Sequence record: PZ534511.1
DNA: 64,000 nt
DNA from: a phage
Direction: 5' to 3' (one strand)
The notes below the pieces were generated by a model. That model searched no databases, had not been told where the DNA came from, and saw nothing but the letters and a program-made list of their open reading frames with translations. The position numbers and the translations under genes were made by a program. Below are positions 3,526 to 64,000 of this stretch, piece by piece (position 1 is the stretch's first letter; each line of letters begins with the position of its first letter).

Positions 3526-4421
3526 ACCCTCGCATAAATTAAACTTGTATCAGTATACTTCTTTAATGGGTAAATATCCTGTCCATAGATGCAATCATTA
3601 AACACCTCATCTACCCAAAGGCTACACTTATATCCCATCATTTCTAAAACACCCATCTCTTCTTCGGTAAACTTATCACCGCTCTTGCAAGATGTCAATA
3701 CCTCATTCTGAACTCTTGCTACCTCGAAGCGGTTATTGGCAATATCGCTATTGGCGATCAAATACTCACCTAGAGGGTGTGCGGCATTAAAGATGCACAG
3801 CGGACGGCTGACGTAATAGTCTCCAGGTGTATAAAAATTGTTGAGGTCTTTCACTAGAACATTCTTATCAGTCACTTCATTTATAACATCATGCATATCG
3901 CACATCTTTATATGTTTGAGGATTCCATCCCCCATCACAAAATAAAAACTTGCTGAGACACTTTCGGCATAGATCTTACTAGATCCGTTGTAGTTGTATT
4001 TTACTCGGATGCTAACGGGGGTTTTTCCTGTCGCGTTAGCCATCATCCAAAGAAATGGCAGCTCATACTTCTCCTCTGAGGAAACAAAAGGTGAGGTAGC
4101 CAGAGATCGAAAACCTCCAGAGAAGTTGAAAGTTACAGAACCGCTCCGGCGGTATGATACCGCGTATTCTACTTTTATATCGACATACCCATTGGAATAG
4201 GTGTGTCCTTCATTATCTAAATATGTCCACTTATCAGACCCAGATACCAATCTACGCTCAATAACCTTCATCACTATAGGAATTAATGGGTTGGTACAAA
4301 CCGCTTTTGAAGTAGCTTTATCATCTAAAGCCTCGTAAATTGCAGAAAGGATGTCCCCAGCTGAAAGATTGGTTGTTATGTCCTGTTTCCACCGCGTACT
4401 AAAACTGTTAAGATTTGCCAT
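3522..4421 (-). CDS. Hypothetical protein
   Basis: Track ORF, 299 aa, first gene of minus-strand operon. Confidence 0.5.
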   Translation of the reverse strand: MANLNSFSTRWKQDITTNLSAGDILSAIYEALDDKATSKAVCTNPLIPIVMKVIERRLVSGSDKWTYLDNEGHTYSNGYVDIKVEYAVSYRRSGSVTFNFSGGFRSLATSPFVSSEEKYELPFLWMMANATGKTPVSIRVKYNYNGSSKIYAESVSASFYFVMGDGILKHIKMCDMHDVINEVTDKNVLVKDLNNFYTPGDYYVSRPLCIFNAAHPLGEYLIANSDIANNRFEVARVQNEVLTSCKSGDKFTEEEMGVLEMMGYKCSLWVDEVFNDCIYGQDIYPLKKYTDTSLIYARV

Positions 4422-4563: not shown

Positions 4564-5541
4564 ATGAATCTTGAAAAATATTATACACCAGAAGAGTTAG
4601 AGCGCTTGCTCAAAAAATATAGACGCAAACAGAATAACGCACGGAAACGAGATATAGAGTTCGACCTGTCATGGGAAGAATACCTCCTATTTGGTAAAAA
4701 ACTTTTAGGAGATGGAGTATGCGACTATACCCTTATACCTTTTGACATGCACACAGATGAAAACGGGCTGGGGAATCCTTTCTACCCATCTCTGGAGCGG
4801 ATAGATGATGAAGGTCCTTATGCGGCTGATAACTGTTGTGTGGTGGGATTGAGATGCAACTCTCTAAAGGACTGTCTGGTAGATAAAAAGACTGCAGTCT
4901 TGATTAAAGACGAAACTGATCGAAAAATTGTCCAGCAGATGATGCTCCACCTGAGCGAAGAGCGTATGGAGAAATTGAAAGGTGATTATACTTTTGAAGA
5001 TTTCATCTTGCAATATGGAACGGAAGAGGATAAACTAGCACTCTTTGACGAAGAAGAGGAGGAAGATATGCTACCGATGTCTAAAGTTACTTATCGTGCA
5101 CCCAAGAAGCACATTTCCGACATTGTAAACGAGCCTATCACAGAAGAGATTGAAGAAATGACGCAACAGGTGCATGAAGAGGAAAAAGAGACTCAGGAGG
5201 TCGAAGAGGAGCTTACAGAAGAGGTTCCTGCACTACCTGATGATGTTGAGATTGCCAAAGCTTACACTTTCTATTGTCAAACGTTCTACGATGTAGGTAT
5301 GAAAGTTGATCTGTCATTCAGCCAATTTAAGAGTTCGTATATTCGCAAATGCTGTGCTTTAACTGGTGAACGTCTTGGAGCTGGACTTAAACCCCTGTTG
5401 GTGACCGACTGGAATAAAGGTTTCACTAAAGGAAACTTTATGGTAGTATCTCCAATTATGGAGAAAGCTATGACAGATCTTATGAAGACCACCCGCATGA
5501 CAATGACCGAGTTGGCAGGTATTTTCAAACACGTTAAATAA
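4564..5541 (+). CDS. Hypothetical acidic protein
   Basis: Track ORF 4498..5541; start placed at ATG 4564 downstream of promoter-like element; Glu-rich centre; internal in-frame ATG at 5077 lies in second copy of the 29-bp repeat. Confidence 0.5.
   Translation: MNLEKYYTPEELERLLKKYRRKQNNARKRDIEFDLSWEEYLLFGKKLLGDGVCDYTLIPFDMHTDENGLGNPFYPSLERIDDEGPYAADNCCVVGLRCNSLKDCLVDKKTAVLIKDETDRKIVQQMMLHLSEERMEKLKGDYTFEDFILQYGTEEDKLALFDEEEEEDMLPMSKVTYRAPKKHISDIVNEPITEEIEEMTQQVHEEEKETQEVEEELTEEVPALPDDVEIAKAYTFYCQTFYDVGMKVDLSFSQFKSSYIRKCCALTGERLGAGLKPLLVTDWNKGFTKGNFMVVSPIMEKAMTDLMKTTRMTMTELAGIFKHVK
5072..5100 (+). repeat. 29-bp perfect inverted repeat, copy B
   Basis: Inside ORF 4564..5541 in frame (LPMSKVTYRA), preceded by GAGGAGG; flanking bases differ. 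Confidence 0.85.
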
Positions 5542-5546
5542 TGACA

Positions 5547-5572
5547 GGGGCCAATGGCCCCTTCTGGAGTTT
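5547..5572 (+). terminator. Terminator-like hairpin (weak)
   Basis: GGGGCC-aat-GGCCCC after stop of 4564..5541; short T-run. Confidence 0.3.
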
Positions 5573-5574
5573 TA

Positions 5575-7035
5575 ATGGATAGCAGAAGTTCAGAAATCAT
5601 TGCCTCGCAGAAAGATGATGCCCTGAGAATGTTGCAGGCTGCACGTATGTATCTCCTTGAAAAGCTGCCGTTTTATGGCACACTACTGTCAGGGTTGCAG
5701 TTCGTAGAAAACCACACATGGTGCTCCACCATGGCAACCGACCATAAACGCATCTACTACAGCCCTGAGTTCATTATGGGGTTGGCGGATGAGCGTAAAA
5801 CCATTCTTAAAGCATCTCTGACTGACAAGCAGTTTGAGATGGCTGAGGTTTTCTATTCCCCAAAATCTGTGAAAGAGGTGGCCTTTCTTCTGTCACATGA
5901 GGTGGGGCATATTATCTGTGATCATCTGGTCCGTGGTAAAAGCTTTGAGCCGGAACTGTTCAATATTGCTTGTGATCACGTTATCAACACAGGTCTTGTG
6001 GTTGACTTTAGCAAGCCTCCTTGTGTTTTCTTCCCGAAGGGGAAAAGCACTGAGTTCGTAAAAGGTAAGCCTTTTGGCTTCTTAGCTAATTGCTACTGCG
6101 ACATGAGGTTTCATGGATGGATTGCTGAGAACGTCTATGCAGTTCTTGATAAACAAAGAGATCAGAATGGCGGTAAAAGTAAGAACGGTAAAGGTGAGAA
6201 CTCCCAAGGAGATAAACGACAAACCGATGATCACATGAGCGGGAACGGTGGCACTAGTGATGATCTTGGAAAGGCTATGGGGTATGATCAGCCGCAACCA
6301 GTAATCAGTCAATCTGACAAAGATCAGGCCATGCAGGACTCTGGTGACATGTTGGAAGCAGCAATGCAAGCTTCAGGAGGTCGTTGCCCCGAGGCGGTGC
6401 GCGAGTTTGTCAAAAACAGAGGCAAGCCTGTAATCAATTATATAGATATTATTAAGCAACGTATGTTATCTAAAAGAAAGGCTGAGTTAACCTACAGAAA
6501 ACCTGGTCGCCGATCTGGGTCTTTGACCACCACAATGCGAAAAGTTGGAGCTATAAACAAGAATCAACACGTTATTGTTCCTGGTCGTAATCCGGAAAAC
6601 ACTATAGATATTGTAGTGGCTTTAGACGTTTCTGGGTCGATCTCACAAAGAACTTTAAAGAAAATGTTCAATGAGATCACCGGGTTGTGCAATTTGTATA
6701 AAGAGTTTAAGGTTACTATGTTCTGTTGGTCAACGGAGGTTGGAGAGGTTAAAGTATACACTCGCGGTAACATCGATGAGATGATTAACTATGAGGTCCA
6801 CTCAACATGGGGCACAACAGCCGCCTGCGTGTTCGAGTATCTGGATGCTAACATACCGAATGCAAAAGATGTCATCGTCCTTACCGACCTCTACTTTGAG
6901 CATAACTTTGAACAAAAGGCTGTTGACAACAAGTGGAAAAAGTACGATACTTTATGGGTTCTCACCGAAGGGTATAATAAAAATTATATCCCGAGCTTTG
7001 GGAAAACTGTGGAATTAATCGAGTACGCTAAGTAA
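5575..7035 (+). CDS. VWA-domain protein with N-terminal HExxH metallopeptidase-like motif
   Basis: HEVGHIICDH near residue 115; MIDAS-like VVALDVSGSIS near residue 350; start moved to ATG 5575 after GGAG (track start 5554 sits in a hairpin). Confidence 0.7.
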   Translation: MDSRSSEIIASQKDDALRMLQAARMYLLEKLPFYGTLLSGLQFVENHTWCSTMATDHKRIYYSPEFIMGLADERKTILKASLTDKQFEMAEVFYSPKSVKEVAFLLSHEVGHIICDHLVRGKSFEPELFNIACDHVINTGLVVDFSKPPCVFFPKGKSTEFVKGKPFGFLANCYCDMRFHGWIAENVYAVLDKQRDQNGGKSKNGKGENSQGDKRQTDDHMSGNGGTSDDLGKAMGYDQPQPVISQSDKDQAMQDSGDMLEAAMQASGGRCPEAVREFVKNRGKPVINYIDIIKQRMLSKRKAELTYRKPGRRSGSLTTTMRKVGAINKNQHVIVPGRNPENTIDIVVALDVSGSISQRTLKKMFNEITGLCNLYKEFKVTMFCWSTEVGEVKVYTRGNIDEMINYEVHSTWGTTAACVFEYLDANIPNAKDVIVLTDLYFEHNFEQKAVDNKWKKYDTLWVLTEGYNKNYIPSFGKTVELIEYAK

Positions 7036-55798: not shown

Positions 55799-56605
55799 TT
55801 AGATAAAACGCTTGAACATAGAAGGTGATGAGATTGATGGAATCACACAAGGAAGTGCTACCTCCTCTTTCTCCAGGAAATTAATCGCAGAAGCTACGCA
55901 GTCGGCCCAGTCGTCTTTTCTGTTAAATGTTGATCTTTCCCCGTTGAATTTTTCAAGTTCAGTCAGAAATGCTTCCAGAGTATCAGGATGGAAACTGGAT
56001 TTTACAATCCTCACCATTCCTTGTTGGGCAAGATTGGCAAAAGGTGAGAACCTTGTCAGTTTAGACTTGTTGGAAGGCATTGGGTCTTCTTCAACCCTGA
56101 ACCCTTCGGCAAGCAAGGATCTGGAGGAGGTTAAGAACTCACTCTTACCTGCCTGCCCTGGGTCCACAGAGAAGACGATTATGCAATCATCACCATCGAA
56201 CTGCGCCTGTTTCCTGATGATCACATCTCGTTCACCAGCCTTTTTACAGAACTTGCCTTCCAGACCTGTGGAATACCTCCCGTCATCCACGTTCTCAGGA
56301 CAATAATCACCGGACAGGTAATAAAAGCCGTCGCTATCTTTACTTACCTTAATACTGGCAGTAAAGTCAGGAAATTTATTACCGGAAGTTCTCTCGGTTC
56401 CTGCCTTATCCCATGCCCTGCAAGATACTGACCCAAGAGGTACTCTATCGGCATCACGAAGGAAAGATCTTTGAAAATAGTTTGCACCCTCAGGCTTTGC
56501 AAACCAGTTACCATGGAGAAGCTGAGCTTTTTCCAGCTCTGGTAGACCTTCAAGGAAAGCAAGGTATTCTGGGTTATCTCTCAGGCAGACAGGATTATCG
56601 AATCC
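55799..56605 (-). CDS. terL: Terminase large subunit, exon 3 (nuclease domain)
   Basis: Frame open from in-frame stop at 56606-56608; GFDNPVCLRD..LLHGNWFAKPEG..SVSCRAWDKAG..DDWADCVASAINFL; track ORF 55799..56290 is its 3' part. Confidence 0.7.
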   Translation of the reverse strand, partial: GFDNPVCLRDNPEYLAFLEGLPELEKAQLLHGNWFAKPEGANYFQRSFLRDADRVPLGSVSCRAWDKAGTERTSGNKFPDFTASIKVSKDSDGFYYLSGDYCPENVDDGRYSTGLEGKFCKKAGERDVIIRKQAQFDGDDCIIVFSVDPGQAGKSEFLTSSRSLLAEGFRVEEDPMPSNKSKLTRFSPFANLAQQGMVRIVKSSFHPDTLEAFLTELEKFNGERSTFNRKDDWADCVASAINFLEKEEVALPCVIPSISSPSMFKRFI

Positions 56606-57578
56606 TTATATTCAAAGGTGGTCGCAACACCACCTTCCGCACCTTTACGTGCTGCTGCATGTTACCATGCAGAGTAGACTATATCACCACCCATTTCAGG
56701 GTGCTTCGCTTTTCGAGCGCCATAAGCTTGCGCCCTACTCCCTCTCGGGATAGTCGTTGAACTACATTACCAATCGTAATTGTTTGAAATATAGGTGTAA
56801 GTCTTACGGTCTTTTATTCCTTTAACAACACTAAAACTTACTCCCCACTTCTTAGCTATTTTATTGACACACAAGACCTTATCACTAAGATCCTCGCAGA
56901 TACCTATTATCTTGTGCTCACTTATCCGATTAGAGGTTGGCACTTTTCTAAAGTTAAACTCTTTAGAAATATCTGGGTATACTGAGCCATTCTTTATACC
57001 ACTTACAAGTGGTTGATTGACACCGAACATTTCACAAATGTCTTTTACCCTTGCGCCTTGTTCTAACAGCCTACATATTTCAAGAGCAGTGGCATCATCC
57101 AGGGACCTGTATTTATTGACATAGTCCTTTTTAAGTCCCATTTCATGAGCGTGATGTGTGTTTTCCTCAGGCGTTGTCCACTCAAGGTTCCATGCGGCGT
57201 TATTCAACTTATTACCATCTAGGTGGTTTACTTGAGTTTTCACGCTGGGATTGTCATTATCAACAAAAGTCATAGCAATCACTCTGTGAACGAGCACTTG
57301 GAACTTTTTACCGTCCTCGCACAAAGTTACCATAGCATAGCCAGTCTTTTTCTGCACATTAGGATGGAGGAATTTATTAGAATACAGACTGTAAATTCTG
57401 CCATCGTATGTAGCACAATAATGATTGTAGCCTAAAAAGCCTAAATTTTTCATTTCAAACATCTCCCTACTACAGGTTCGGAAGGGTAATTATAGCTGCT
57501 GATTGTCCGTTTAGCAATCGGATTTCCCAGCAATTAACGAAGTTATTCGACGTGCATTTCTGCACGAAGCCACTATCA
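56606..57578 (-). mobile_element. Group I intron 2 in terL, with HNH endonuclease ORF
   Basis: P AATTGCTGGGAAA (~57523-57535), Q AATCAGCAGC (~57495-57504, compensatory to P), R GTTCAACGACTATCC (~56748-56762), S GATATAGTC (~56677-56685); boundaries approximate. Confidence 0.65.
56767..57462 (-). CDS. HNH homing endonuclease (HNH_3-like), intron-encoded
   Basis: NHLDGNKLNNAAWNLEWTTPEEN motif; C-terminal HTH-like region; between Q and R elements of intron 2. Confidence 0.75.
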   Translation of the reverse strand: MFEMKNLGFLGYNHYCATYDGRIYSLYSNKFLHPNVQKKTGYAMVTLCEDGKKFQVLVHRVIAMTFVDNDNPSVKTQVNHLDGNKLNNAAWNLEWTTPEENTHHAHEMGLKKDYVNKYRSLDDATALEICRLLEQGARVKDICEMFGVNQPLVSGIKNGSVYPDISKEFNFRKVPTSNRISEHKIIGICEDLSDKVLCVNKIAKKWGVSFSVVKGIKDRKTYTYISNNYDW

Positions 57579-57902
57579 TTTAATGGTTGCGCCTATAAAC
57601 GAGAATGACAACGGTCTTGGCTTGATCTCAACACCCAGTCCGTTAACCGTGGTGTATTTCTCTATCAACTCTTCTTTAGAGTCTCCCCAGATAAATTCAC
57701 CGTCGCGTCGGATAAAATATCTTTTCTTACCGCATTTCTCCGGATCTGGATACCCTTCATCGTCCAACCACCATCTAACCAGTTTGGCAAGCATGTGTTC
57801 TGAATCGGGGTTACAGCTGATAACCATTCTTGATGGATACTTTGACTGAGATCGCAGACGAGACATCAGATAGTCTATCTGCTCCCATTCGAATTGTGTC
57901 GT
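57576..57902 (-). CDS. terL: Terminase large subunit, exon 2 (ATPase C-terminal part)
   Basis: Frame open from stop near 57903-57905: TTQFEWEQIDYLMSRLRSQSKYPSRMVISCNPD; exact 3' end (5' splice site) probably just upstream of 57579. Confidence 0.55.
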   Translation of the reverse strand, partial: TTQFEWEQIDYLMSRLRSQSKYPSRMVISCNPDSEHMLAKLVRWWLDDEGYPDPEKCGKKRYFIRRDGEFIWGDSKEELIEKYTTVNGLGVEIKPRPLSFSFIGATIK

Positions 57903-58782
57903 TTATGTTCGGGCAAGGTCGCTAGTCTTGCCCCGCCATTTTCAGGCAGCTGCATGTCTCCATGCAGACCAGACTATATCTTATGAATGTGTAAATACTC
58001 TGCCGCTCTAAGAATAGTTTCCTCATCCTCTTGGAAGAAACCTAAAGCTCTGTTGCATTTATCACAAAGCAACCCTCTTACAGCACCAGTTTTATGGTCA
58101 TGATCAACACAAAAGAAATCTCTATACCCTTGCGTCCTATACTCATCAAGGGATATTCTACAAATGGCACACTTATGATCTTGATCTGAGAGTAGACGAT
58201 AGTATTCATCTTTTGTTATGTGAAATTTCTTCTCAATCTGATAAAACTTTTCACACATCTTACACCTGTTCGTAACCAGATATACTTTACCATAGTCACG
58301 TTTTGTGTAAAAACTATCAGCGAGCATACTTTCATGACAAGATTTGCATTCAAAAAGTTCACCTTTCTTCAGCAAGTCTTGAATAAACAATGCTGCGTCA
58401 TCTCTCTTAACCATATTTTTGTTTTTACGAGATCCACCCTTCCTGTAGTACATATAGCATTCCTTGCATGTACCTGAGTATCCATCCTTGCTCTTAGATG
58501 ATAAAAAGAAATCATCAATAGGTAGAACTCTTTGGCAATCCATACATTTTTTAGTATTACACATTCACCCTCCCGTTTCGAATCGCTTGATTCTACGTCT
58601 TTCGACTAGTCGTTGAACGTTCATCCTCTCGGATGCTTCGCTGCGGATTATCTAAATTAACACACTGTTACCATACCTTCGATCTCTCTTCGAAGCCTCT
58701 ATCATGTTACCATGACAGGTTGGTGGTGTCAATAATAAAGATTTCCCCGCAATTAGGGAGGTTTTACGAGAGCTACAAATTA
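57903..58782 (-). mobile_element. Group I intron 1 in terL, with HNH endonuclease ORF
   Basis: Minus-strand core elements: P AATTGCGGGGAAA (~58742-58754), Q AATCCGCAGC (~58640-58649), R GTTCAACGACTAGTC (~58604-58618), S AAGATATAGTC (~57972-57982); boundaries approximate. Confidence 0.7.
57974..58564 (-). CDS. HNH endonuclease (endonuclease VII-like) with CxxC zinc fingers, intron-encoded
   Basis: CVDHDHKTGAVRGLLCDKCNRALG motif; several CxxC pairs; between R and S elements of intron 1. Confidence 0.75.
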   Translation of the reverse strand: MCNTKKCMDCQRVLPIDDFFLSSKSKDGYSGTCKECYMYYRKGGSRKNKNMVKRDDAALFIQDLLKKGELFECKSCHESMLADSFYTKRDYGKVYLVTNRCKMCEKFYQIEKKFHITKDEYYRLLSDQDHKCAICRISLDEYRTQGYRDFFCVDHDHKTGAVRGLLCDKCNRALGFFQEDEETILRAAEYLHIHKI

Positions 58783-59208
58783 ACCCTCATCGAAGCAAAC
58801 CATGGTATACTCAAGCCCTTGATGGTTAAGCTTATCTTGTACATACTCCATGTGGCAGTATTTTACAACAGCTCCCTTTTTGCTTCTATCCCACTTGCCG
58901 GTGTTCGGATCAAACCGTGGAAAAATGAACTTATGATCCTTCTCTCTGAACTTTGGCTTAATGTTTTCAGGCAGATCACTATAAATAGCTACTGCTTTAG
59001 GCCATAGTCCACCCTCACCTTCCAACTGTGGGGTTGTTCTTCGGAACATAACCACAGAGCTGTGGGGGTCATCAATAATTTTAAGTGGCATCAATTGCAA
59101 GAGGAACGACTTGCCAGACCCTGCGGCACCGCCGATTACCAAAATATCTGCATCGTTTTCAAGGATCATCTTCTGCTTTTCAGAACACGGTCCGTAAATC
59201 TTAGACAT
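58780..59208 (-). CDS. terL: Terminase large subunit, exon 1 (ATPase N-terminal part)
   Basis: Walker A GGAAGSGKS; Walker B MVCFDE just before stop at 58780-58782, followed by intron P element. Confidence 0.75.
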   Translation of the reverse strand: MSKIYGPCSEKQKMILENDADILVIGGAAGSGKSFLLQLMPLKIIDDPHSSVVMFRRTTPQLEGEGGLWPKAVAIYSDLPENIKPKFREKDHKFIFPRFDPNTGKWDRSKKGAVVKYCHMEYVQDKLNHQGLEYTMVCFDEG

Positions 59209-60311: not shown

Positions 60312-60388
60312 TGGTCTCCACGGAGTGATTCGAACACTCGACCTCCTGATCCCAAATCAGGCGCTCTACCAAGCTGAGCTACGCGGAG
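60312..60388 (-). tRNA. tRNA-Pro (anticodon UGG)
   Basis: Hand-folded cloverleaf: 7-bp acceptor CUCCGCG/CGUGGAG, T-loop GUUCGAAUC, anticodon loop UUUGGGA, encoded CCA. Confidence 0.7.
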
Positions 60389-60399
60389 TATTTATTATT

Positions 60400-60474
60400 T
60401 GGTGGCCCTGGGTGGAATTGAACCACCGTCTGGCGATTATGAGTCGCTTGCTTGAACCTTCCAGCTACAGGGCC
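60400..60474 (-). tRNA. tRNA-Met or Ile2 (anticodon CAU)
   Basis: Acceptor GGCCCUG/CAGGGCC, anticodon loop CUCAUAA, T-arm GGUGG-UUCAAUU-CCACC, encoded CCA. Confidence 0.65.
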
Positions 60475-60475
60475 A

Positions 60476-60551
60476 TGGTGCTGATAGCAGGACTCGAACC
60501 TGCAACCTATTGATTACAAATCAATTGCACTACCAATTGTGCTACATCAGC
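60476..60551 (-). tRNA. tRNA-Thr (anticodon UGU)
   Basis: Acceptor GCUGAUG, D-arm GCAC-AAUUGGUA-GUGC, anticodon loop UUUGUAA, T-loop UUCGAGU, CCA. Confidence 0.7.
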
Positions 60552-60556
60552 AAAAA

Positions 60557-60655
60557 GGTGCTAGGTGATGGAATCGAACCACCTATGTATTCAACGACTA
60601 CCTCGTCTATTTTCAGGATTAAAAATCCTCGCCCTTGCCAAAGGGCTTACCTAGC
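60557..60655 (-). tRNA. Atypical tRNA-like gene (about 99 nt; possible UUU anticodon; about 30-nt variable region)
   Basis: Perfect acceptor GCUAGGU/ACCUAGC, D-arm GCCC-UUUGGCAA-GGGC, T-arm GGUGG-UUCGAUU-CCAUC, but anticodon arm non-canonical and extra hairpin ACGAGGUAGUCGU; 3' CC only. Confidence 0.4.
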
Positions 60656-60753
60656 TCAGTATGTTGACCATGTTGCTAGTCGGCGATGACGACTGTAACA
60701 TTTGATAATCCGGTTCTGCTTCCGGCTTTCGCTTAATTACAAGGTCAACAATA

Positions 60754-60844
60754 TGGCTGAGGGTAATGGAATCGAACCATCATCGAGTCATCCTCAACGG
60801 GACGGTTTTCAAGACCGCTTGAGCACCATTGCTCCCTACCCTCA
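60754..60844 (-). tRNA. tRNA-Ser (anticodon UGA), long variable arm
   Basis: Acceptor UGAGGGU/ACCCUCA, anticodon loop CUUGAAA, long variable arm, T-loop UUCGAUU, CCA. Confidence 0.65.
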
Positions 60845-60958
60845 TTTATAAACAATACTGATAATGACACTGATTTTCGAGCAGTTAGTGACTAGTATAA
60901 ACGACGATAAATATCAATGCCATTATCTGTATGATTTATGCATTTAAAAATGTAAATT

Positions 60959-61045
60959 TGGTGGGGAGTGGTGGAGTCGAACCACCCGAGTCGCAATGAC
61001 AATAGATTTACAGTCTACACCGCTACCTCTACGGGATAACTCCCC
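60959..61045 (-). tRNA. tRNA-Tyr (anticodon GUA), long variable arm
   Basis: Acceptor GGGGAGU/ACUCCCC, anticodon loop CUGUAAA, T-arm GGUGG-UUCGACU-CCACC, CCA. Confidence 0.65.
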
Positions 61046-61049
61046 AATT

Positions 61050-61124
61050 TGGCACCCCGTACTGGACTCGAACCAGTGTCAACGGCTTAGAAGGCCGCTG
61101 CTTTATCCACTAAGCTAACAGGGC
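61050..61124 (-). tRNA. tRNA-Arg (anticodon UCU)
   Basis: Acceptor GCCCUGU/ACGGGGU (G-U pairs), D-arm GCUU-AGUGGAUAA-AGC, anticodon loop CUUCUAA, T-loop UUCGAGU, CCA. Confidence 0.65.
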
Positions 61125-61182
61125 ACTGGGTGGCTTTCTTTTACACCTTAGCCGCCAGAAAAGGTGGGAGACCATGTTTACA

Positions 61183-61211
61183 ATATTACACTGTTAAGCA
61201 AAGTTTGTCAA
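61183..61211 (-). promoter_or_regulatory. Sigma70-like promoter (TTGACA-17-TAATAT) for tRNA cluster
   Basis: About 60 nt upstream of tRNA-Arg. Confidence 0.45.
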
Positions 61212-61220
61212 GAAAATATT

Positions 61221-61559
61221 TTAACTATTGCCAACAGGCTGTATTTCTGTGGTAAATGGCATAAAAGGTGCTGGTTTTTCAGCCTCTTCTACTACCACCT
61301 CTTCCTCTTCACCGAACATCTCATCATATTCTTCCTGCATTCGGTCTGCCTTATCAAGAACATACTCTGCAATGCTTTGACGAATATTTTGTTTGGTTTT
61401 CGGGTCCAACATCAGCTCTCTTAAAACTTTGTGAGCTTCTGGAACCATCGCTATAAAAGATTCCTTCATATCAAGGATGTTCTTCTCTAGCTGAATGGCG
61501 TTGGACTCCTCTTTCAGAGGTCTGCCTCTACGGCGACGCTTTTTAGTTGTATCCGCCAT
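61221..61559 (-). CDS. Basic DNA-binding protein candidate (AT-hook-like N-terminus)
   Basis: Start at internal ATG 61559 after GGAGG and consensus promoter; N-terminus TTKKRRRRGRP; acidic C-terminus. Confidence 0.45.
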   Translation of the reverse strand: MADTTKKRRRRGRPLKEESNAIQLEKNILDMKESFIAMVPEAHKVLRELMLDPKTKQNIRQSIAEYVLDKADRMQEEYDEMFGEEEEVVVEEAEKPAPFMPFTTEIQPVGNS

Positions 61560-61587
61560 GTTTCCTCCATTATCACGTGATAGGTGG

Positions 61588-61616
61588 ATTTTATCATAGC
61601 AAATACTGATTGTCAA
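61588..61616 (-). promoter_or_regulatory. Sigma70-like promoter (TTGACA-17-TAAAAT)
   Basis: Consensus hexamers about 30 nt upstream of ATG 61559. Confidence 0.45.
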
Positions 61617-61903
61617 GTTCGCCGCAGGGTGGTATTCCCTGCGACTTGTCCAGCGTCCTAGACCAGCAAGACCCAACAAGTGGGTTACCAGAGCCCATTA
61701 CCGCACTTTGGCTCGACCTTATTACAGGTTGGCTGGGGTCACATCGTCATGTGCTGGCTGCCCCTACCATTTTAAGTGTGGTGCACTATCAAGCCCTCTA
61801 AGGGGAACTCAGTCTTCTCCGAACCCTGTTTCAAAGCATCCGGAGATAAAGCCATCAAATTCATCTTTAAATTGGATATTCATCATGATACACGAAAACA
61901 ACC

Positions 61904-62146
61904 TCATTGTAAAGCACAAATAAATAAAACATACTTAATTTGTTTGTTATCAGGCTCAGGGTAGAAGTAGAAGATCTTGCTATCACCGATCTGAACACCA
62001 CCATCCCAACAGCATAGCCCATAACCCGTATTCATACAAGCTAAGTCGTTGGCAAAATCTATTGCATCATCCAGTGCACGAAATTCACCTTCATCTTCTA
62101 AATAATCCTCATTCATGGAACGAAAAACGAGCTTAACCTTAAACAT
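61904..62146 (-). CDS. Hypothetical protein
   Basis: Track ORF, 80 aa. Confidence 0.4.
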   Translation of the reverse strand: MFKVKLVFRSMNEDYLEDEGEFRALDDAIDFANDLACMNTGYGLCCWDGGVQIGDSKIFYFYPEPDNKQIKYVLFICALQ

Positions 62147-62222
62147 AGCATTACCTGTAGACCTCGTAAGTTAAAATTGTATCACATCATATTGCAGATC
62201 TTATCAGGTAACATTATTTTTG

Positions 62223-62432
62223 TCAACAGATTCCGGCCTTATCTCGCCTGTCTGCGTATTCTTTAATCGCAACCTCCTCTGCATTGGTGACTAAATCTTC
62301 AAAGTAACTCTCAAGCTCCTCGTCAATGTCAGGAAACCAACTCTTTTTCCTGTCAGTGTGAATCGCAGACTTGTTGAATTTATTACAGTTCTTTGCTACC
62401 GGATTATTCATTAATAGCCCCTCAGCGTTCAT
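62223..62432 (-). CDS. Hypothetical protein
   Basis: Track ORF, 69 aa, overlaps upstream gene stop. Confidence 0.4.
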   Translation of the reverse strand: MNAEGLLMNNPVAKNCNKFNKSAIHTDRKKSWFPDIDEELESYFEDLVTNAEEVAIKEYADRRDKAGIC

Positions 62433-63000
62433 AGTAAATCTTATTTAACATTACCTCATCCTTTGCAGAAAGAATACCGAGATATGCATCACCGAACCTG
62501 CCTGCAACAACCTCTACATGATACATCACTTCGTTAATATCGTCAAGAGTGATAACTGGATGACCGTATCTCTCTGAGTATTGTCTCAGAGTGCGATGTA
62601 GGGAATCATCATCGTAGGCAGACTTTTTAATATCACAAACACGACGAATAGCCTTGATGTCGAAAAACCCTGTGCGATACCAACCAAGAAAAAGGTTTCG
62701 TGCAGTGTCAACACCTACATCAACACCGTCAAGAACCTTATCTACAAGATAGCTGTCATCCTTTGGACCTGCTTCCTTAGTTCGAATGTAGTTGCCATCT
62801 TTTCCAGGTGACAGCTCCTTCTCATCACCAACCTGAATGCCATCATTTGGCGGTGTTAACCACTTATCCGGATGCTTACGATCACGAGCGTTAGAATGAT
62901 TACGCTGGAAACCTGGCTTCCACTTGAAAGTTTTCTCCATCTGTTCTTCATTCTGATAACGTTTTGCAATCTTTTCACGGTCATCTTTGCGTGGACTCAT
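62422..63000 (-). CDS. Hypothetical protein
   Basis: Track ORF, 192 aa; GGAGG RBS; downstream of iteron/AT-rich region. Confidence 0.45.
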   Translation of the reverse strand: MSPRKDDREKIAKRYQNEEQMEKTFKWKPGFQRNHSNARDRKHPDKWLTPPNDGIQVGDEKELSPGKDGNYIRTKEAGPKDDSYLVDKVLDGVDVGVDTARNLFLGWYRTGFFDIKAIRRVCDIKKSAYDDDSLHRTLRQYSERYGHPVITLDDINEVMYHVEVVAGRFGDAYLGILSAKDEVMLNKIYYER

Positions 63001-63359
63001 AGCTGCCTCCTCTTCAAGTTATAGAAAAACTCACTGTATCGCTTTGTAACGAGCTTTTCTATCAAACTGGTGCGATTGCCTTACCTGATATAGTTTATAT
63101 AGCTGTGGAGCGATTTAGGGGCCTTCTTGTCCGTTTCCACACATAAACTTCATCCAAGCTCGCGCGGGAGACTCTCAACCGACTCCTTCCGGCGCTGGCA
63201 AGCTTTCGTCGGTGGTCCACATCAGTGCTCGGCCTTTGGCCTGCGCTATCGCTTCGCTCCCACACATGTTAACAGACCTGCATGTATGCACTTCTGTTAT
63301 TGTGTGCACCAGAGAGGCCCGGCATCTCGCCCCTCGTAGGCGAGTGCCAATGAAGGGCC

Positions 63360-63500
63360 GACACTACCAATAGTAAGTAATAAATTTAAAACATGGTACT
63401 TAGGATCTAATATATTCTACATAAGTTAAGTATATGTACTTAGTACCATAAGTACTAGATCTTTTGTTTTTTATTATTTAGTTATTTTAGTTATATTCTT
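63360..63500. promoter_or_regulatory. AT-rich tract with short GTACT-type repeats next to iterons; origin/operator candidate
   Basis: Sharp drop in GC; repeats GGTACTTAGGATCT / GTACTTAGTACC / AGTACTAGATCT. Confidence 0.35.
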
Positions 63501-63504
63501 TATG

Positions 63505-63585
63505 TGTCCGTATCACGGACAGTTAGTGTCCGTATTACGGACAGATTTGTCCGCGTGACGGACAGTAGTGTCCGTATCACGGACA
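63505..63585. repeat. Four 17-bp palindromic iterons TGTCCGTATCACGGACA at 21-22 bp spacing
   Basis: Copies ~63505-63521, 63527-63543 (1 mismatch), 63548-63564 (3 mismatches in central spacer), 63569-63585; half-sites TGTCCG/CGGACA invariant. Confidence 0.8.
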
Positions 63586-63660
63586 GTTACTAACCTCTGT
63601 TCCAGAGCGAACATAAAACATACGAATCCTTATAGTACAGATATTTAAGTTTTTACTGGT

Positions 63661-63957
63661 CTAACCAGTTGTTGACATTCGAATAACTTCTTCTGGTGGC
63701 AAAACTTTGGAAAATGTGCATCTTTTACCTCTCCCTTGTGTGGATATTTCAACCACTCCCGCACATTCTAAAGTTTTAACGCACGCTGCTGCTTTTGTTT
63801 TCTTTATTCCAACATCTGCTGCAATTTTCCTTGTGCTGGGTGTGAAGCGTGAACTTCCTCCAAGCTTATACCAGTTGTGCAGGTAGCAGTATACGATCTT
63901 GTCATACAAGTCAAGAACAACAACCTCCCCAGTTGTGTCATTCAAAACTTTTGACAT
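63661..63957 (-). CDS. Winged-helix DNA-binding regulator candidate
   Basis: STRKIAADVGIKKTKAAACVKTLECAGVV resembles an HTH recognition region; iterons lie just downstream. Confidence 0.4.
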   Translation of the reverse strand: MSKVLNDTTGEVVVLDLYDKIVYCYLHNWYKLGGSSRFTPSTRKIAADVGIKKTKAAACVKTLECAGVVEISTQGRGKRCTFSKVLPPEEVIRMSTTG

Positions 63958-64000
63958 AGACAGTATTTCAAGGGGGACTTTAAGATATAGCAGCTTATCC

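Follow-up and report, generated by a model that had tools for sequence, protein, structure and literature searches.

Near one end of PZ534511.1, a 64,000-nt stretch of phage DNA that was analysed at its full length and is referred to below as the window, two GC-rich islands lie between AT-rich genes. A preliminary description had placed them at 61620-61900 (block 1) and 63130-63360 (block 2). The 3 kb around both blocks are 99% identical to Escherichia phage APECc02 and 97–99% identical to more than 100 other Vequintavirus (rV5-like) genomes, and the window is assigned to a Vequintavirus phage. The genes of this region are oriented on the minus strand. In that direction, the order is an RNA ligase gene (divergent, and just outside the window), polynucleotide kinase, phosphoesterase, a winged-helix gene, block 2, three small open reading frames (ORFs), block 1, a promoter with the gene of a basic protein of 112 amino acids (aa), a tRNA cluster, lysis-type genes, and the gene of the terminase large subunit (terL). 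The latter starts at 59208, which is 2.5 kb downstream of the junction core of block 1 and about 4 kb from block 2. The reading proposed here is that the islands are two unrelated conserved non-coding structured elements, block 1 being a tRNA-associated small RNA module and block 2 an origin-proximal cis element; taken as a whole, we consider the case for this reading evenly balanced.

Both islands are GC-richer than their surroundings, as first described. In 200-nt intervals, GC content reaches 53% at 61600-61799 and 55% at 63100-63299, versus 35–44% in the flanks and a mean of 44.2% for the window, and only seven stretches in the 64 kb exceed 55% GC over 150 nt, both blocks being among them. 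The hairpins quoted in the preliminary description are present (CTCGCC-cctcgta-GGCGAG at 63326-63344 and GGCC-ttt-GGCC at 63231-63241), as is the promoter bounding block 1, which is near-consensus. The blocks had, however, been treated as one kind of thing, and this did not hold: no similarity was found between them, to the rest of the window, or to the rnaC and rnaD RNAs of T4, and they are two different elements.

The absence of a convincing ORF was borne out for block 2 and for 61617-61808, where the candidate ORFs are broken, but not for 61809-61900, which a small minus-strand ORF overlaps. Between 61809 and 61919, eight related phages vary at six sites, five of which are third codon positions, while the sixth alters only the last residue. 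In a sister genus (contigs L126, L128, L133, and L090; L numbers designate the sequences compared here), this ORF is shortened to the 8-aa MKDEFDGF with a good ribosome-binding site, so that KDEFDGF is retained, and the small ORF is annotated in phage AlexBoehm. It is the sole ORF to pass a test of open frame and third-position bias, and 61809-61886/61919(-) is classed as protein-coding. Because 61809-61900 is coding, the true non-coding island is 61617-61808: the left part of block 1 as first drawn stands, and its right third is removed.

A protein-coding role for the blocks themselves, through small ORFs such as 63127-63339(+), 63095-63265(-), 61594-61698(-), or 61610-61801(+), appears highly improbable. 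Frames of this kind are present in the window, the annotation of phage AlexBoehm lists two of them as hypothetical proteins, and several indels of block 2 are multiples of three. Against this, every candidate meets stops or frameshifts in one to five of eight relatives (at least one of the eight for each candidate in block 2), substitutions show no preference for a codon position, every ORF spanning 61640-61705 is disrupted in relatives by single-nucleotide indels, and the plasmid versions of block 2 described below cannot hold any reading frame. The frame at 63127-63339(+), which had been suspected to be a shadow, is one: it has in-frame stops in five of the eight phages and lacks third-position bias.

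Known RNA families did not account for either island. At gathering thresholds, Rfam 15 detected only tRNAs in the whole window, and at E<=10 it returned three chance-level matches in 61100-64000, so that the covariance search recommended earlier gave no meaningful family match for either block. The idea that the islands are intron or ribozyme remnants was not supported, since Rfam 15 has no meaningful match to them even at E<=10 and neither interrupts a gene; for the group I P3-P9 core (RF00028) there is no signal in either island, the nearest intron-like matches being 3–5 kb away in the terminase gene. Single-sequence folding was only slightly better than that of shuffled sequences (z-scores of -0.8 to -2.35 for both blocks), and counts of G·U pairs in minimum-free-energy folds were uninformative. 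Evidence of structure beyond chance therefore comes from comparison with relatives and not from the single sequence. The comparative alignment, which had also been suggested, revealed compensated helices in both blocks. Table 1 lists the features of the locus.

Table 1. Features of the two islands and of their surroundings in the window
Feature	Position	Strand	Remarks
tRNA genes (n = 7)	60312-61124	-	Rfam and ARAGORN
Promoter, sigma-70-type, of the next gene (112-aa K/R-rich protein, 61221-61559)	61588-61616	-	TTGACA-17-TAAAAT, 11/12 matches, upstream TG; bounds block 1
Block 1 proper, non-coding, template of a structured RNA	61617-61808	-	5' domain, P1, three-way junction, three 3' hairpins
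Three 3' hairpins of block 1	61671-61685; 61648-61663; 61623-61643	-	ACCCA/UGGGU; GUCYAG-GACG-CURGAC; CGCAGGG/CCCUGCG; compensatory changes
Junction core CCAACCUGUAAUAAGGUCGAGCCAAAGUGCGGUAAUGGG	61686-61739	-	P4, P2 (ACCU-GUAAUA-AGGU), and P3 plus junction strand GGUAAUG; covariance model R1, alignment A2
Hairpin P1, GGGG..CACAU-GACG-AUGUG..CCCC	61735-61764	-	directly 5' of core; both stems compensated in relatives
5' domain GUUCCCCUUAGAGGGCUUGAUAGUGCACCACACUUAAAAUGGUAGG	61765-61808	-	0 substitutions in eight rV5-like phages; near-identical in four L126-type relatives
Small ORF MMNIQFKDEFDGFISGCFETGFGED	61809-61886 (25 aa, ATG) or to 61919 (36 aa, TTG)	-	codon-position bias; within block 1 as first drawn
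Block 2, non-coding structured element	~63113-63364	+ (better-supported single strand)	ORFs broken, without codon bias
Head GCGCGGGAGACUC	63162-63222	+	helix H1 (63179-63183 with 63208-63212), 24-nt loop, then UCCACAU; compensated arms
CCCACACA junction motif (63259-63266) and variable long hairpin (63261-63306)	63259-63306	+	
Tail, three-tier hairpin GGCCC-G-GCA-U-CUCGCC-loop-GGCGAG-UGC-loop-GGGCC	63316-63359	+	includes the CTCGCC/GGCGAG hairpin first described
AT-rich stretch with large inverted repeats	63380-63500		35% GC over 63380-63584; plus strand folds to a Y-shaped hairpin, then U-run
Four palindromic 17-mers TGTCCGTATCACGGACA	63505-63584		21-bp period; read from sequence
Winged-helix gene, labelled 'replication initiation protein'	63661-64000, runs past window end	-	116 aa in relatives

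Block 1, a structured element on the minus strand

Block 1 is 93–99% conserved across 119 Vequintavirus records, and its segment 61740-61808 is invariant within rV5-like phages, whereas a neighbouring 192-aa protein falls to 83% identity. Hairpin P1 is always found 5' of the junction with lineage-specific compensated stems, namely GGAAC/GUUCC and CUACG-GACG-CGUAG in the L126-type phages, GGGAA/UUCCC in T4, and GGGAG/CUCCC in L055. Two of the 3' hairpins are compensated together in L011, where GUCCAG-GACG-CUGGAC is replaced by GCUCAG-GACG-CUGAGC and ACCCA/UGGGU by UCCCA/UGGGA. The window, L024, and L028 contain in these 3' hairpins a U·G pair, which counts as a wobble when the minus strand is read and as a C·A mismatch when the plus strand is. 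Across rV5-like phages and the sister genus, RNAalifold identified seven pairs with changes on both sides; the sister genus retains the architecture of block 1 with different stem sequences. Helices are thus compensated and tolerate G·U pairs on one strand alone, and their covariation exceeds that of shuffled and slid controls. Block 1 is, on this comparative evidence, a conserved non-protein-coding structured RNA element of the minus strand, and among the possibilities raised at the outset it is the non-coding RNA that fits it. A check for host origin against 5,426 complete Escherichia coli genomes gave no match to block 1.

The central part of this element, the three-way-junction core, extends far beyond the Vequintaviruses. 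About 686 other phage records match 61694-61736 at 90–97% identity; they belong to Tequatrovirus and relatives infecting Escherichia, Shigella, Klebsiella, Salmonella, and Yersinia, and the matched stretches are mostly unannotated. Pattern scans of IMG/VR added a 359-kb jumbo contig, contigs of 33–140 kb, and others. Alignment A2 was composed of 21 distinct core sequences from about 11 phage lineages, and 89% of its cells are paired. In P4, which closes the junction, pair 8-46 is CG in 14 sequences, GC in five, and AU in two, and is never broken, and pair 7-47 includes six G·U; in P3, pair 29-36 is likewise never broken (CG in 16, UA in three, GC in two). A2 has a covariation score of 0.227; shuffled controls give 0.086 (0 of 500) and slid partners no more than 0.054. 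The G·U pairs of the core occur on the minus strand only. Covariance model R1 finds one copy per genome, with a score of 75 bits for the copy in the window.

Judged by Rfam 15 and the searchable literature, this junction is an undescribed phage RNA motif of wide distribution. No Rfam family fits the core in five lineages at E<=5-10, and in T4, L128, L030, and L073 no match spans it at E<=5; the literature on an RNA at denV/vs.8 yielded nothing relevant. The core is not called as a tRNA either: ARAGORN and Rfam find the seven neighbouring tRNAs only, and nothing at the core in the window or at nine other loci.

In T4, the match (~64,860-64,899) lies directly past the stop codon of denV and inside the annotated 5' end of vs.8. 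In phage HY01, vs.8 is annotated from a downstream ATG, and the motif is therefore intergenic. The annotated start of T4 vs.8 lies within the junction (L066 4853-4913, equal to T4 NC_000866 ~64,852-64,912), and in L063 the AUG of the motif is out of frame with the conserved N-terminus of Vs.8; the vs.8 start of T4 is probably annotated too far upstream. The possibility that the core is a coding segment was rejected: it is in frame with the annotated T4 start, but it is out of frame in L063, falls outside the HY01 annotation, and is followed elsewhere by unrelated sequence. A leader specific to vs.8 was also discarded, most lineages being without vs.8. In two 46-kb contigs (L073 at 5100-5340 and 5400-5700, and the equivalent in L117), the core is flanked by repeated long hairpins, CACAACAGGUAAUGRC...GYCAUUUCCGUUGUG, that reuse GGUAAUG.

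The genomic company of the core is recurrent. tRNA genes are found on the same strand within 600 nt of it in 7 of the 11 lineages; in the jumbo contig (L030) it lies 42 nt after three tandem tRNAs, and it precedes four tRNA genes in L073 and two in L117. In L094 and L115 a terminase operon begins 0.5–1.1 kb downstream, and in T4-like phages vs.8, the next gene after the core, has a weak terminase-ATPase-like match. The core is thus usually co-oriented with, and near, tRNA genes and/or upstream of terminase genes. In L128 of the sister genus, the element begins some 6 nt after the end of a TTGACA-17-TATACT promoter and is directly followed by a second promoter, TTGACA-17-TAAACT, with no ORF between. 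Bracketed in this way by two near-consensus promoters and free of ORFs, the sister-genus element appears to form its own transcription unit, about 170 nt long. An intrinsic terminator is located 16 nt past the core in L091. Conservation, structure, strand, and genomic association can be regarded as established for block 1 at the level of sequence comparison.

What block 1 does is more conjectural. It would be transcribed on the minus strand along with the neighbouring genes and would constitute a small stable RNA module whose production accompanies that of the phage tRNAs. A docking surface for a conserved host machine would be formed by the nucleotides that stay unpaired and are near-invariant, namely GUAAUA, the hexaloop of P2, and the junction strand GGUAAUG; the RNA would be a decoy for that machine or a modulator of it, acting neither as coding sequence nor as DNA signal. 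A contact with a conserved host partner is suggested because these unpaired nucleotides are near-identical across unrelated phage families. A small stable RNA made with tRNAs and binding such a partner is the tentative reading adopted here for block 1, held with distinctly less than even confidence. We take GUAAUA to be also the hexaloop of 23S rRNA at 1093-1098, and CUGUAAU presumably resembles the anticodon loop of tRNA-Tyr (CUGUAAA).

Several points weigh against this reading. The near-invariance is partly built in, P2 and CGGUAAUGG having been demanded by the search patterns; the folding z-scores are weak; in T4-like phages the core adjoins vs.8 instead of tRNA genes; and the terminase genes downstream of it in several lineages would fit a cis-acting leader equally well. 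The features of an independent small-RNA gene are those of relatives, namely the promoter in L128-type phages and the terminator in L091, and neither stands beside the element in the window: a promoter and terminator scan found there no consensus promoter directly upstream of block 1 and no terminator after it. For that reason, block 1 could be merely a 3' untranslated region or a leader. We infer that in the window the upstream promoter has decayed and that the small-ORF transcript would carry the RNA as its tail.

A somewhat less probable alternative, which we hold to be unlikely without discounting it, is that block 1 acts in cis only, as a leader or intercistronic module of a tRNA-lysis-terminase unit and not as a free small RNA. 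The nascent junction would then bind the elongating host RNA polymerase, in a put-like processive antitermination as in phage HK022, or would set RNA processing or stability. The element is always co-directional with the downstream genes, and in L128 it is placed between a strong sigma-70 promoter, which directly precedes it, and the next operon. The position of the terminase operons of L094 and L115 also agrees with it, the terminator of L094 being directly before terS, as does the window element, which has no terminator of its own, and near-identity across phage families would here too follow from a conserved host target. The succession of core and terminator in L091 matches a layout of regulated read-through, but a free small-RNA gene classically has this shape too. 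Furthermore, the core of L030 follows three tRNA genes and not a promoter, and there is no known read-through requirement at denV/vs.8 of T4. As for put itself, this RNA of about 70 nt forms two stem-loops just downstream of early promoters and acts on the zinc-binding domain of beta' (PMC9378689). Like block 1 in L128, it is a compact folded RNA found after a sigma-70 promoter, and its target is a conserved host machine, with no phage protein needed (PMC9378689); a shared logic would explain both the identity of unpaired nucleotides across unrelated coliphages and the constant co-orientation of block 1. No claim of homology in sequence or architecture is made, however: put folds into a V of two stems with a triplex, block 1 into a hairpin and a three-way junction.

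Other known phage RNAs offer partial parallels to a small stable RNA. The species 1 and 2 RNAs of T4 (rnaC and rnaD) are small stable non-coding RNAs located in, and co-transcribed with, the phage tRNA cluster; they nevertheless differ from block 1, with which they share no sequence similarity, and the T4 junction lies 6 kb from the tRNA cluster, between denV and vs.8. The packaging RNA (pRNA) of phi29 is likewise a phage RNA built on a small three-way junction, and block 1 lies upstream of terminase genes in several lineages. Block 1 nonetheless lacks complementary loops for ring formation and any sequence relation to pRNA, which makes this an analogy only. T4 packages DNA in vitro without RNA. 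Finally, the rV5-like phage PhiTE carries pseudo-ToxI, a non-coding RNA locus that opposes a host defence by molecular mimicry and is a precedent for decoy RNAs in Vequintavirinae-type phages (PMC3475682). Pseudo-ToxI is a tandem 36-nt repeat mimicking an antitoxin; neither block, in contrast, is a tandem repeat, and no antitoxin RNA of Rfam matches them. If the junction RNA is functional, a conserved non-coding gene would exist even in T4, hidden within the annotated 5' end of vs.8.

Block 2 and the 13-kb plasmids that share it

Among phages, block 2 matches Vequintavirus records only (119), its strongly conserved segments being the head, a middle segment at 63225-63266, and the tail. The arms of helix H1 occur in four types, all Watson-Crick: CCGAC/GUCGG in rV5, GCUGCC/GGCAGC and GUCCGGAU/AUCCGGAC in the plasmids, and GACGGC/GCCGUC in L128-type phages. 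The variable hairpin is 18 nt shorter in two phages and remodelled with compensation in L011. The tail of plasmid CP020521 differs by two compensatory pairs, GCA/UGC being replaced by UCA/UGA and CUCGCC/GGCGAG by CUCUCC/GGAGAG. The listed helices, which are stems picked by eye, comprise 201 Watson-Crick pairs and one G·T; the few wobble pairs of block 2 are plus-strand G·U(T), in contrast to block 1, in which G·U pairs are common. Of the perfect hairpins with three-base loops in the plasmids, eight have GNA loops on the plus strand and none on the minus strand; GNA triloops stabilise DNA rather than RNA hairpins. Block 2 is, from these comparisons, a conserved, non-protein-coding folded element. 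The CCACA repeats were considered as protein-binding sites or DnaA boxes and rejected, since two of the three copies are lost in L011 and their spacing is unphased.

The winged-helix gene beside block 2 encodes a protein of family phrog_12838 (E = 8.5e-80), with a match to Pfam HTH_36 (8e-5) that is under the family cut-off. A sequence search of the PDB with the initiator-like proteins gave generic winged-helix matches only. The same order, namely initiator-like gene or iterons, AT-rich stretch, element, and first promoter of the following operon, recurs in rV5, in the L128-type phage with four different palindromes, and in the plasmids.

Within complete E. coli genomes, block 2 matches only circular plasmids of 13.2–13.7 kb, found in 7 of the 5,426 genomes, one record being a trimer; one 13.2-kb plasmid from a plasmid collection and two metagenome contigs also match. 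The family (13.2–13.9 kb) thus includes L005 (NZ_CP020521.1, 13,689 bp), CP035869, CP043822 (the trimer), CP178698, CP148565, JBUCKS010000006, AP045055, and CP074841, along with metagenome contigs L017 and L019. Its members encode a major capsid protein (phrog_29) and tape measure, neck-like, and baseplate-like proteins; the latter three are 25%, 45%, and 50% identical to window proteins, respectively, while the capsid protein has no match among window proteins. No terminase, portal, sheath, or tube matches were detected in the plasmids. They also encode helix-turn-helix proteins with weak replication-initiator matches and carry direct-repeat iterons. Beyond the structural genes, the only DNA common to the plasmids and the phage is the head and tail of block 2, which recur beside the iterons. 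Downstream of the plasmid head come two to four interchangeable modules with CCCACACA(CA) as the joint between them: up to three hairpin cassettes and, last, a terminator-like hairpin or a tail of the phage type. Non-coding status, compensatory stems, shared synteny, and sharing with plasmids are established for block 2 by these alignments.

The plasmids look like plasmid-borne satellites of rV5-type phages that are apparently undescribed. Nothing relevant was found in the literature on rV5 or Vequintavirus satellites or on these plasmids, IMG/VR contained one rV5-like contig and no satellites, and an exact-pattern scan of genome contigs gave only chance matches in unrelated metagenome-assembled genomes. 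Like P2/P4 cos, PLE/ICP1, and the phage-inducible chromosomal islands, they are small elements with few structural genes, no terminase, and one non-coding segment in common with a large lytic phage. They differ from these systems in being free 13-kb replicons with their own iterons, and in that the shared segment keeps its structure and not its exact sequence.

Many of the cassettes, about 45 nt in length, are built from three perfect mini-hairpins that abut one another, such as CCTTC-GTA-GAAGG TTTGAG-ATGAG-CTCAAA TCAC-CATAT-GTGA. These are variably present at several plasmid sites (L017 4480-5330, with equivalents in L003, L007-L010, L019, and L067-L069), and are flanked by 6–10-bp duplications of CA-rich sequence (CCACAA.., GACTAACAAA, CCCACACA). 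These triple-mini-hairpin modules behave like tiny mobile or recombining cassettes.

Such behaviour invites the view that both blocks are functionless GC-rich debris, that is, remnants of mini-hairpin cassettes, recombination scars, or decayed genes or introns. The insertion-like duplications and presence/absence polymorphism of the plasmid modules, the deletion of the variable hairpin in two phages, and the group-I-like introns elsewhere in the window would agree with it. It is nevertheless very unlikely, given that 61740-61808 is invariant beside a protein of 83% identity, that the junction core exceeds 90% identity across unrelated phage families with compensation, and that block 2 keeps its head and tail, with compensation, in different phage genera and in the plasmids; the negative Rfam results for introns and ribozymes also oppose it.

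For block 2, the replication or packaging cis-element of the preliminary description remains the leading type of reading. Block 2 would be an origin-proximal cis element, acting as a folded plus single strand once the AT-rich stretch opens. It might signal priming or helicase loading, or act as a limit for the phage replisome, and the satellites would carry head and tail beside their own iterons so that the helper machinery acts on them. This origin-linked reading is preferred because of the shared layout and the Watson-Crick, strand-biased hairpins, and we put it slightly short of an even chance. Its closest parallels are of two kinds. Iteron origins (lambda ori, RK2 oriV) similarly associate an initiator gene, four repeated sites, an AT-rich stretch, and a GC-rich structured segment, although here the repeats are palindromes downstream of the gene and the likeness is one of layout. 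Single-strand initiation (ssi) priming signals, either G4-type or those of RSF1010 (ssiA/B), are short Watson-Crick hairpins, as in block 2 with its strand-biased GNA triloops; the likeness is one of form. An element of this kind would offer a first experimental handle on the replication origin of Vequintaviruses, phages that are widely used in therapy and biocontrol, and would open the study of apparently unreported plasmid-like satellites parasitising a strictly lytic myovirus.

Some of the evidence counts against an origin-linked element. The 'replication initiation' label is a PHROG family name only, the palindromic 17-mers could be plain operators, the choice of stems by eye limits the Watson-Crick tally, and a plus-strand RNA is suggested by terminator-like hairpins that lie downstream of the element on that strand in phage and plasmids alike. 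From these hairpins follows an unlikely but coherent alternative, in which block 2 is the template of a plus-strand RNA directed towards the AT-rich stretch, either an origin-activating or primer transcript as at ori(uvsY) and ori(34) of T4 or in T7, or a copy-control RNA, and in which its adoption by the satellites would tie their replication to infection by the helper. The plasmid array ends in an intrinsic terminator on the plus strand (module D), the phage has its Y-shaped hairpin and U-run on the same strand between element and repeats, and the wobble pairs (at the ends of H1, and CAC/GUG in L011) are G·U on the plus strand only; a motif CGATTTAGRGG is present upstream of the head in both phage and plasmids. 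However, no sigma-70-type promoter was found upstream on the plus strand in phage or plasmid, the L128-type phage is without a plus-sense terminator between element and repeats, and the helices are almost purely Watson-Crick, with triloops of the DNA-stabilising GNA type.

Given headful packaging, the obvious alternative to an origin-linked element is a packaging site shared with the satellites: block 2 would be, or would contain, a headful packaging (pac) site mimicked by the satellites for packaging by the helper terminase. Sharing of cos or pac sites is the classical link between helper and satellite, as for P2/P4. In agreement with it, block 2 is the sole non-coding DNA common to phage and plasmids, and the plasmids have capsid and tail genes with no detectable terminase. 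The rV5-like phages are reported to be circularly permuted and to package by the headful mechanism (PMC8407724, PMC13211470). Still, stem sequences differ between helper and satellite while pairing stays, which a copied double-stranded protein-binding site would not need, and half of the plasmids (head type 2, tail D) are without the 24-nt loop and the tail of the phage. In addition, the element is about 4 kb from terL with the tRNA cluster between, and it tracks iterons and an AT-rich region in three different replicons. A pac site appears quite improbable.

A more ambitious joint reading, improbable as it stands, would make the junction a new and widespread phage small RNA that travels with tRNAs and neutralises or reprograms a host machine, and block 2 the handle by which undescribed 13-kb satellites hijack the replication or packaging of rV5-like phages. 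Within it, the CUGUAAU loop may be a decoy of the tRNA-Tyr anticodon loop (which we take to be CUGUAAA) against tRNA-cleaving defence nucleases, or the junction may be a put-like modifier of RNA polymerase. Should the junction RNA prove functional, it would also bear on the reasons for which phages keep tRNA clusters and on their means of countering host defences directed at tRNAs or transcription.

Other features of the neighbouring genes

The promoter downstream of block 1 belongs to an extended style, TTGACA-17-TAAGAT or TAAAAT with an upstream TG, that is found in the phage at 62198-62226(-) and 61588-61616(-) and in the plasmid contig L017 at 4140-4168(-) and 4331-4359(-). In both the phage and the satellite-like plasmids, such promoters precede small early-type genes. 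The 112-aa protein encoded at 61221-61559(-) begins with a K/R-rich GRP motif, KKRRRRGRPLKE, and is of unknown function in PHROG. It resembles small 'GNPNGRP' proteins encoded before the large terminase gene in L115 (1185-1517) and downstream in L091 (10210-10659), and it might be an unrecognised small terminase subunit.

The terminase large-subunit gene (55799-59208, minus strand) is apparently split into at least three exon-like ORFs, at 58780-59208, 57576-57866, and 55799-56290. Between them lie sub-threshold matches to group I introns (RF00028), one at 57950-58792 with 48.5 bits (cut-off 50, E = 2e-10) and one at 56655-56893 with 35.7 bits, each accompanied by an endonuclease-type ORF (57974-58564 and 56767-57462, respectively). 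In contig L126, a full-score group I intron is found about 3 kb downstream of the junction core, maybe at a position equivalent to that of the terL matches. Finally, one tRNA-like gene of the cluster, at 60557-60655(-), measures 97–99 nt. ARAGORN gives it a 4-base anticodon, its Rfam score of 35.5 bits is just over threshold, and it is annotated as tRNA-Lys in phage AlexBoehm; it may be an intron-containing or otherwise unusual tRNA.

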